A stretch of DNA of 64,000 nt, from the NCBI GenBank assembly GCA_964461105.1, contig CAYWSY010000001.1:8714-72713 (forward strand), written 5' to 3'. Of this stretch, positions 49,189 through 49,358 are shown in pieces. The notes beneath the pieces are model-generated. The model was not told where the DNA came from. It did no database searches and worked only from the letters and a program-made list of their open reading frames with translations. Position 1 is the stretch's first letter; the number at the start of each line of letters is the position of its first letter. This DNA is from an uncultured bacterium. Its GTDB lineage: Bacteria; Chlamydiota; Chlamydiia; Chlamydiales; Rhabdochlamydiaceae. A program made the position numbers and the translations under genes.

Positions 49189-49358
49189 CTAGTAGTCTGT
49201 AAACAAAGCTCTTGGTGTTAGTTTTCGCGTGAAAGCGCCCGCGGTTGAATCGGGATCGAGGGGGGCTGTGTCTATGAACACAGCTCCTCTCGATCCCGAT
49301 CCAACCCCGGGACTTTGACGCAAAAATAGCTGCAAGAACTTTATTTACAGACTACTAG
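49189..49358. repeat. PE-C copy 1: 170-bp imperfect palindromic element
   Basis: CTAGTAGTCTGTAAACAAAG ... CTTTATTTACAGACTACTAG. Central stem GCTGTGT-CTATGA-ACACAGC. Ends 8 nt before the ATPase ATG. Confidence 0.92.

Follow-up and report, generated by a model that had tools for sequence, protein, structure and literature searches.

The window, that is, the whole 64,000-nt stretch of DNA that was analysed, carries infC, pheS and two tRNA genes, together with two copies of a palindromic element, hereafter PE-C, that lie next to the starts of an ATPase gene and of a LicD-family gene. Apart from an identical protein, the best matches of its PheS bear the labels Chlamydiota, Chlamydiia or Rhabdochlamydiaceae, and this, with the synteny to a relative described below, points to an uncultured chlamydia-like bacterium as the source of the window. 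The features of this region are as follows:

48975..49061, + strand: tRNA-Ser(UGA) gene, 127 nt upstream of PE-C copy 1, at the conserved edge of synteny with relatives
49133..49188, + strand: conserved upstream segment of the ATPase gene, ending in TATAAC, common to homologues elsewhere
49189..49358, + strand: PE-C copy 1, a 170-nt palindromic element and probable MITE (covariance model, 183 bits)
49192-49355: core of copy 1 (GTAG...CTAC), with TA flanks at 49190-49191 and 49356-49357, within the outer C...G
49254, + strand: element position 66, G in copy 1 and in the SW_7 copy (see below), T in copy 2; partner, position 107
49295, + strand: element position 107, C in copy 1 and in the SW_7 copy, A in copy 2; partner, position 66
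49367..50557, + strand: AAA_16-type ATPase gene, downstream of copy 1, widespread and highly conserved
51864..53048, − strand: LicD-family gene, with its start 36 nt from copy 2
53085..53254, − strand: PE-C copy 2, inverted relative to copy 1 (covariance model, 192 bits)
53088-53251: core of copy 2, with TA flanks at 53086-53087 and 53252-53253

Copy 1 is inserted directly after the segment at 49133-49188, which is probably a promoter or operator, and 8 nt before the ATPase ATG. Copy 2 lies in the divergent intergenic region between the LicD gene (start at 53048, − strand) and an ORF at 53353-53922 (+ strand). For the 396-aa AAA_16 ATPase there are over 8,000 homologues; the best 120 are all 75-91% identical, and the source labels range over Chlamydiota, Anaerolineae and Desulfovibrionaceae. 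The gene travels with the conserved 56-nt upstream segment. In the closest relatives (loci L019-21 and L028) it is missing from the interval that follows tRNA-Ser, and in locus L027 it again adjoins a tRNA gene. Judging from these sequence comparisons, the gene seems to be a unit of its own that has been transferred very widely.

Copy 1 read on the + strand and copy 2 read on the − strand are both exactly 170 nt long and align without gaps, differing at 6 of the 170 positions. Aligned the other way round, they match at just 94 of the 170, and the two copies are therefore inverted to each other. An earlier note, made from the letters of the window alone, had described two reverse-complementary copies at 49189-49358 and 53085-53254, and we found the same coordinates (164/170 matches); its account of the termini (CTAGTAGTCTGTAAA / TTTACAGACTACTAG) and of the central stem (GCTGTGT-loop-ACACAGC) likewise holds. 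The PE-C core is 162-164 bp, non-coding and palindromic almost throughout, with termini GTAGTCTGTAAA(Y)AAAG; CTAGTAGTCTGTAAAYAAAG and its complement are found at the ends of all three full copies known (the third one being described below), as a terminal inverted repeat, and the same terminus occurs at solo ends. A further written form of the terminal sequence is GTAGTCTGTAAAYAAAG. GTAG starts each strand directly after the flanking TA, and each of the three full copies has TA, within CTAG, beside both of its ends, so at six ends in all. The hairpin of copy 2 is more perfect than that of copy 1, with just two G·T pairs.

The window holds other repeats as well. An independent palindrome of ~170 bp, with 81-nt arms that are 85% complementary and a 10-nt spacer, lies at 5444-5615 between a fumarase-like and a Nudix-like gene, and its termini are unlike those of PE-C. 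A separate inverted pair is found at 27348-27492 and 33889-34046, 6.4 kb apart, in which 96 nt are 100% complementary, and the short motif TATACCCCTTCCGGTTCAAAGG recurs at 24990, 29887, 33875 and 50562, close to the beginnings of genes and immediately behind the stop codon of the ATPase gene. Positions 54692-57304 hold a tandem duplication, its unit being 1,307 bp long (88-95% identical), which carries two paralogous 304-aa ORFs with no Pfam match; it is followed, at 57219-58430, by a gene for a protein with a bacterial EndoU nuclease domain.

A full-length relative of PE-C was identified by BLAST in the Parachlamydiales MAG SW_7 (locus L004, 1443-1612); it is exactly 170 nt long and 85% identical to copy 1. 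The SW_7 copy lies directly after an OMP-like gene, in a block that is syntenic with window positions 7780-13394, and nothing but a small terminator-like hairpin is found at the equivalent place in the window (10094-10127). The upstream OMP-like gene of SW_7 takes its stop codon, TAG, from the terminal CTAG of the element (L004, 1443-1446), and 7 nt separate the other end of the element from the ATG of an ORF that has an OGFr_N domain. Sites without the element were found for the window copies too. Homologues of the ATPase gene at four loci (L022, L024/25, L026 and L027) have the conserved 56-nt upstream segment, ending in TATAAY, followed by the ATG without any element. On L028, a 461-kb scaffold (PheS 76% identical) that is syntenic with the window from NusB to Tgt, the spacer between LicD and the ORF is 166 bp, versus 304 bp in the window, and contains no PE-C (no covariance-model match); with a LicD protein identity of 61%, L028 is too diverged for a base-level reconstruction of the empty site at copy 2. 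Since the sites in the ATPase homologues, in the window and in L028 carry no element, all three copies are presence/absence polymorphisms. PE-C thus occurs as dispersed copies with both filled and empty sites, a hallmark of MITEs, the window holding two and SW_7 one, at a site that is not orthologous. Between the SW_7 and window genomes PE-C is 85% identical, whereas the ValS genes show a DNA identity of just 74%, and this difference suggests that the element may be younger, recently active or transferred between the two genomes.

The empty sites also bear on the way in which PE-C is inserted. When the element is excised so as to keep one TA, the window junction reads TATAAC-TA-GGG--AAAAACATG, to be compared with TATAAC-CA-AGGCTAAAAACATG in L022, and a 2-nt gap is needed in the alignment; excising all 170 nt requires an extra 4-nt gap. 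TA (CTAG) is present on both sides of all three copies, and the four empty sites read CA at that place, with a 2-nt gap. If the ends are symmetric, a target duplication of TA (2 bp) or of CTAG (4 bp) would be consistent with this, the two lengths being indistinguishable here, and an element that carries TA at both ends without duplication being also compatible with the junctions.

In order to look for further copies, the exact 19-nt terminus was scanned in 185,579 genomes, one per species, which gave 13 stretches, and the same exact 19-mer scan of metagenome contigs gave 5 stretches. Most of these matches are single-end chance matches without further similarity, and the scans recovered just the three full copies and a few solo ends, so that the copy number appears low in these data. 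Solo ends with the PE-C terminus are found at L005 and L008 in the SW_7 MAG, the flank at L005 being TA/A, and at L003 in a Rhabdochlamydiaceae MAG. Viral contigs scanned for the central stem-loop gave no match, and plasmid records searched by BLAST with the element and its terminus gave nothing useful. A covariance model built from the three copies and run over ~285 kb (the window and the fetched loci) revealed no further close copy; only distant or structural relatives were detected, at window positions 16897-17055, at L027 15150-15319 and at L002 2211-2360. The one in the window is the following:

16897..17055, + strand: decayed related element (59.7 bits), with a PE-C-like right terminus, AACTTTTTATACAGACTACTG, and a core resembling the palindrome at 5444-5615

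The flanks of this element, AGAGCCTATC and GATAGGCTCT, are inverted to each other. Its mixed composition suggests modular or chimeric MITEs that would share one transposase. The L027 palindrome is exactly 170 nt long and bounded by CTAG, with different ends (CTAGGGAGCGTTT...), and scores 51 bits with the PE-C covariance model; the contig that bears it also carries the homologue of the window ATPase gene. The element at L002, in a Chloroflexaceae MAG, is 148-150 bp long and lies between VIT1 and OAD_beta genes; it has the same 20-nt ends as PE-C and an unrelated GC-rich core. Its 21-mer end, TAGTAGTCTGTAAACAAAGTC, is shared by L011 (3721-3741) and L016 (4210-4230), the three loci coming from Chloroflexaceae MAGs and a metagenome contig. 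Because the Chloroflexaceae elements carry the same 20-21-nt terminus, the terminal repeat is common to different phyla.

The inverted arrangement of copies 1 and 2 raises the question of whether they could be the ends of a 4-kb composite unit (49189-53254) that would move or invert the ATPase, HTH, 2-hydroxyacid dehydrogenase and LicD genes as a block. The two copies are 96% identical and bracket 3.7 kb, and the ATPase and HTH genes are missing at this position in L028. L028, however, keeps PheS, tRNA-Ser, 2-Hacid_dh, LicD and the next ORF in the same order and orientation without PE-C; an HTH gene follows tRNA-Ser in L019-21 without the element, and the ATPase gene carries its own upstream segment at unrelated loci. 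As the pieces occur separately in relatives, the block combines resident genes with others that were acquired separately, and is not one cargo. A composite transposon was accordingly rejected, given that the gene order of L028 is kept without PE-C, and a composite unit of this kind is very improbable. It is possible that recombination between the two copies could invert the intervening 3.7 kb; no such inversion was seen, the gene order matching that of the relatives (L019-21 and L028).

One of the differences between the two window copies is paired. The G49254/C49295 pair of copy 1 corresponds to A53189/T53148 in copy 2, at element positions 66 and 107, exactly as the earlier note had it. That is, positions 66 and 107 have changed together and are still complementary, a G-C to T-A double substitution that keeps the base pair. 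With SW_7 as the outgroup, the T-A state of copy 2 is the derived one. The earlier note had proposed that a larger alignment be examined for covariation, and with the third copy added, 7 of the 75 predicted pairs in the three-copy alignment are changed on both sides with the pairing kept. Chance expectations were obtained from simulations in which the observed number of differences was scattered at random positions:

Copy 1 versus copy 2: 6 differences, 1 compensated pair, 0.023 expected, P=0.023
Copy 1 versus SW_7: 26 differences, 4 compensated pairs, 0.52 expected, P=0.001
Copy 2 versus SW_7: 28 differences, 7 compensated pairs, 0.64 expected, 0/30,000 simulations (P<1e-4)

As a control, the 3′ partners were shifted by 1-3 columns, and no compensated pair was obtained at any offset. 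Three of the seven compensated pairs are transversion pairs without a wobble intermediate, namely 31-140 and 62-111 (both T-A to A-T) and 66-107 (G-C to T-A). It could be argued that the mirrored change at 66/107 is a coincidence of two independent neutral substitutions, since there are just six differences between the window copies and four of them touch the pairing on one side only. Six random substitutions, however, produced at least one compensated pair in only 2.3% of trials, and once SW_7 is included the excess over the simulations, together with the empty slide controls, makes such a coincidence exceedingly improbable. Because compensated pairs exceed chance and the slide controls gave zero, the palindromic symmetry, or complementarity of the arms, is actively maintained in PE-C, in a covariation test that is small (n=3 sequences). 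The 66/107 pair is one instance of a family-wide tendency toward complementary arms. With SW_7 again as outgroup, the changes assigned to the lineage of copy 2 (30, 155 and 66+107) all keep or improve pairing, and those assigned to the lineage of copy 1 (21 and 48) each break a pair. This polarity would fit the expectation for an active lineage that maintains pairing, followed by decay after insertion.

Every copy folds as one long hairpin from either strand, with RNA folding energies of −107 to −121 kcal/mol and z-scores of −16 to −19 relative to dinucleotide shuffles; folding with DNA parameters gave −72.8 kcal/mol (z −18.9). The forward and reverse RNA energies (in kcal/mol) are −107.1/−114.5 for copy 1, −120.9/−121.5 for copy 2 and −121.2/−119.7 for the SW_7 copy, and folding is equally good on both PE-C strands. 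In agreement with the earlier note, the two loop-adjacent G·T pairs (positions 73-100 and 76-97) belong to the + strand in copy 1 and to the − strand in copy 2. Not mentioned in the note are three C·A mismatches in copy 1, likewise on the + strand, at 16-155, 21-150 and 48-124; these become G·U on the opposite strand only. Over the three copies the G·T wobbles are split across the strands, 7 forward and 4 reverse, four of the seven forward ones being two identical pairs common to copies 1 and 2. Some asymmetric bulges are common to the window and SW_7 copies, and because they are conserved between them, the arms of PE-C must be incompletely homogenised.

No sign of coding capacity or of a known RNA was found in the element. 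PE-C contains no usable ORF, and stop codons are present in all frames at the termini. A six-frame peptide profile, meant to catch spurious ORF calls over other PE-C copies, was searched against 5.8 billion proteins, none of which resembles any frame (7,760 candidates, none scored). With the Rfam covariance models there was no match on PE-C, only tRNAs reaching the gathering score; the matches of PE-C were to microRNA precursors, far below threshold, of the sort that any long hairpin gives. A consensus scan detected no sigma-70-like promoter and no terminator-like consensus inside the copies. PE-C was thus rejected as a promoter, the scan giving no site in the copies, and as an intrinsic terminator, no T-run following either end and no site being found at the copies.

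Taken together, the best explanation is that PE-C is a MITE, that is, a mobile insertion whose arm complementarity is kept at the DNA level, a reading to which we assign a probability of roughly 0.7. At 170 nt and non-coding, the element lies within the MITE size range (about 50-800 bp). PE-C would target TA (here CTAG) and depend for its movement on a transposase supplied in trans from another place; no cognate autonomous IS with PE-C termini was found among the tested ORFs of the window, near the related loci and solo ends, or in plasmid records, and no transposase was seen in translated sequence beyond the solo ends of L011, L014 and L016. As to the transposase type, which we infer, the TA flanks would be compatible with a MITE derived from IS630/Tc1-mariner, and an IS5-family origin with CTAG targets would fit equally.

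The same hairpin could in principle be read as the feature that selection acts on, either as single-stranded DNA or as RNA. HUH elements (IS200/IS605) are not known to make target duplications. A REPIN-like, GTAG-tagged hairpin moved as single-stranded DNA by a HUH tyrosine transposase (RAYT/TIRYT), with pairing kept for mobility, would directly explain why the maintenance of pairing is strand-symmetric; GTAG opens each strand after TA, and the same 20-nt terminus is found in the Chloroflexaceae elements (L002, L011 and L016). REP/REPIN sequences resemble PE-C in having GTAG at the 5′ end of the stem, in forming hairpins and in keeping their arms complementary, and GTAG-tagged repeats have been reported in Chloroflexi and PVC groups; RAYT-like genes with long terminal inverted repeats on their flanks also exist (PMC3733652). 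REP units, however, are 20-40 bp, carry the tag at one end and are usually very abundant (PMC3733652), whereas PE-C is a single 170-bp palindrome with the tetranucleotide in the stem at both ends, TA on both flanks and 2 copies in 64 kb. Furthermore, the unvarying TA flanks and the alignment with the empty sites have the appearance of a TA target that was duplicated, and no RAYT (Y1 HUH) gene was found among the tested ORFs of the window and loci, which leaves this origin rather unlikely. The earlier note had pointed to RNA transcribed toward the ATPase and LicD genes; in this reading the hairpin would be a structured, cis-acting 5′-leader element, its pairing kept by selection on the RNA. Compensated pairs are indeed in excess, both window copies place the strand with the two loop-proximal G·U pairs as the sense strand of the adjacent gene, copy 1 is probably in a leader because it lies between the conserved upstream segment and the ATG, and RNA-level action is known for the Correia, ERIC and bcr1 repeats (PMC10969869, PMC3184786).

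Several observations argue against that RNA reading. As the ATPase homologues share the upstream region without the element, PE-C is not part of the regulation of the ATPase gene. The end that points at the adjacent gene start is the same in both window copies; in SW_7 it is the opposite one, the copy there having the reverse orientation relative to the ORF that it abuts. The proposed sense strand of copy 1 contains the three C·A mismatches, fold energies do not differ between strands, wobbles occur on both, Rfam gave no match and transversion-type compensations have no wobble intermediates. A cis-regulatory RNA should show strand-specific covariation and a fixed position relative to genes; the covariation among the three PE-C sequences is strand-symmetric, and the element is a mobile insertion. 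Selection for an RNA in this role therefore seems distinctly unlikely. Of the earlier reading, then, the repeated palindrome and the pair-keeping double substitution stand, the third copy adding pairing beyond chance, and an RNA transcribed toward the ATPase and LicD genes is not supported. Even the broader notion that the hairpin itself is the selected feature, be it a HUH/RAYT-like single-stranded DNA substrate common to Chlamydiota and Chloroflexota (a giant REPIN-like element) or a domesticated 5′-leader RNA hairpin throttling the newly gained ATPase gene and the LicD operon, is possible but unlikely.

Within the MITE interpretation, a DNA-level cause for the kept pairing is favoured, because the strands fold equally well, wobbles occur on both, three of the seven compensations are transversion pairs and the orientation relative to genes differs between copies. 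We infer that this cause would be either template switching from arm to arm or selection for transposability. In the former case, switching between the arms at replication (quasipalindrome correction) would carry a change over from one arm to its partner at one stroke, and the 66/107 double transversion would be explained more simply by one such templated event than by two independent selected mutations. In the latter, selection on an active master lineage could favour symmetric ends or the hairpin formation needed in transposition. Template switching in imperfect inverted repeats is known to make compensatory changes in one event (PMC8794818), quasipalindrome mutations are known in E. coli (PMC7202029), and template switching has been proposed as a source of compensatory substitutions that creates and maintains hairpins (PMC8794818, PMC7202029). 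By this mechanism, too, both arms of an imperfect inverted repeat come to carry complementary changes in one step; it is, though, a mutational process and not an element family, and its action in PE-C would follow from the transversion pairs and strand symmetry only. With three sequences, selection on an RNA or single-stranded DNA hairpin is indistinguishable from a mutational bias.

Among known systems, the nearest to PE-C in architecture are the Correia elements and the TA-targeting MITEs derived from IS630 or IS5. MITEs of the IS630/Tc1-mariner or IS5 (IS427 group) type, such as pneumococcal RUP and plant Stowaway, are flanked by TA with CTAG-like targets, are small, fold back and are moved by a transposase acting in trans. 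PE-C shares with RUP- and Stowaway-type MITEs the TA flanks, the small size, the non-coding nature and the fold-back structure, but the partner transposase that defines such families was not found in the tested ORFs. Correia elements duplicate their TA target. Those of Neisseria (nemis/CREE) are, like PE-C, MITEs of ~100-200 bp with terminal inverted repeats that are mostly located just upstream of genes. PE-C and Correia elements have no sequence similarity, however, PE-C being palindromic over its full length and Correia elements at their terminal inverted repeats only, and PE-C further differs in its low copy number in the available data, in lacking a promoter-like site and in its host, a member of the Chlamydiota. 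Correia transcripts fold into long hairpins that can be cut by RNase III, and MITE transcripts are typically stable stem-loops, often upstream of genes (PMC10969869). Rickettsia palindromic elements (RPEs) and the QMITEs of Coxiella are palindromic mobile repeats of 100-170 bp located by or in genes of obligate intracellular bacteria (PMC3733652, PMC5896051); RPEs often insert in frame inside genes, whereas PE-C stops every frame at its ends, and the sequences are unrelated. As a mobile element PE-C is of a familiar and ordinary type, though its family has had no earlier description.

At the window locus, copy 1 would have landed ahead of the start codon of an ATPase gene that is itself horizontally mobile, behind the upstream segment of that gene, and copy 2 in the divergent intergenic region between LicD and the ORF. 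A read-through transcript of any copy would carry a very stable hairpin; that of copy 1 would sit in the 5′ leader of the ATPase gene, abutting the ribosome-binding region. Such a leader hairpin would be a side effect of the insertion and not the reason for which pairing is kept. If the segment at 49133-49188 is a promoter, the ATPase mRNA would start with a hairpin of about −107 kcal/mol, the base of which would abut the purine-rich stretch before the ATG. Correia and ERIC insertions can change transcript processing and expression (PMC10969869), and PE-C may have an effect on expression as well.

No report of MITEs in Chlamydiae or environmental Chlamydiota was found in the literature searched, and PE-C adds a described MITE family to environmental Chlamydiota. 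The terminus shared with Chloroflexaceae elements hints at a transposase lineage that crosses phyla. PE-C also illustrates a point of caution, in that compensatory double substitutions in long palindromic DNA repeats are expected from DNA-level processes and are not in themselves evidence of a functional RNA. Finally, copy 1 is a case of an insertion that separates a very widely transferred ATPase gene from its upstream control region, just ahead of the start codon, and the hairpin could change the expression of that gene.
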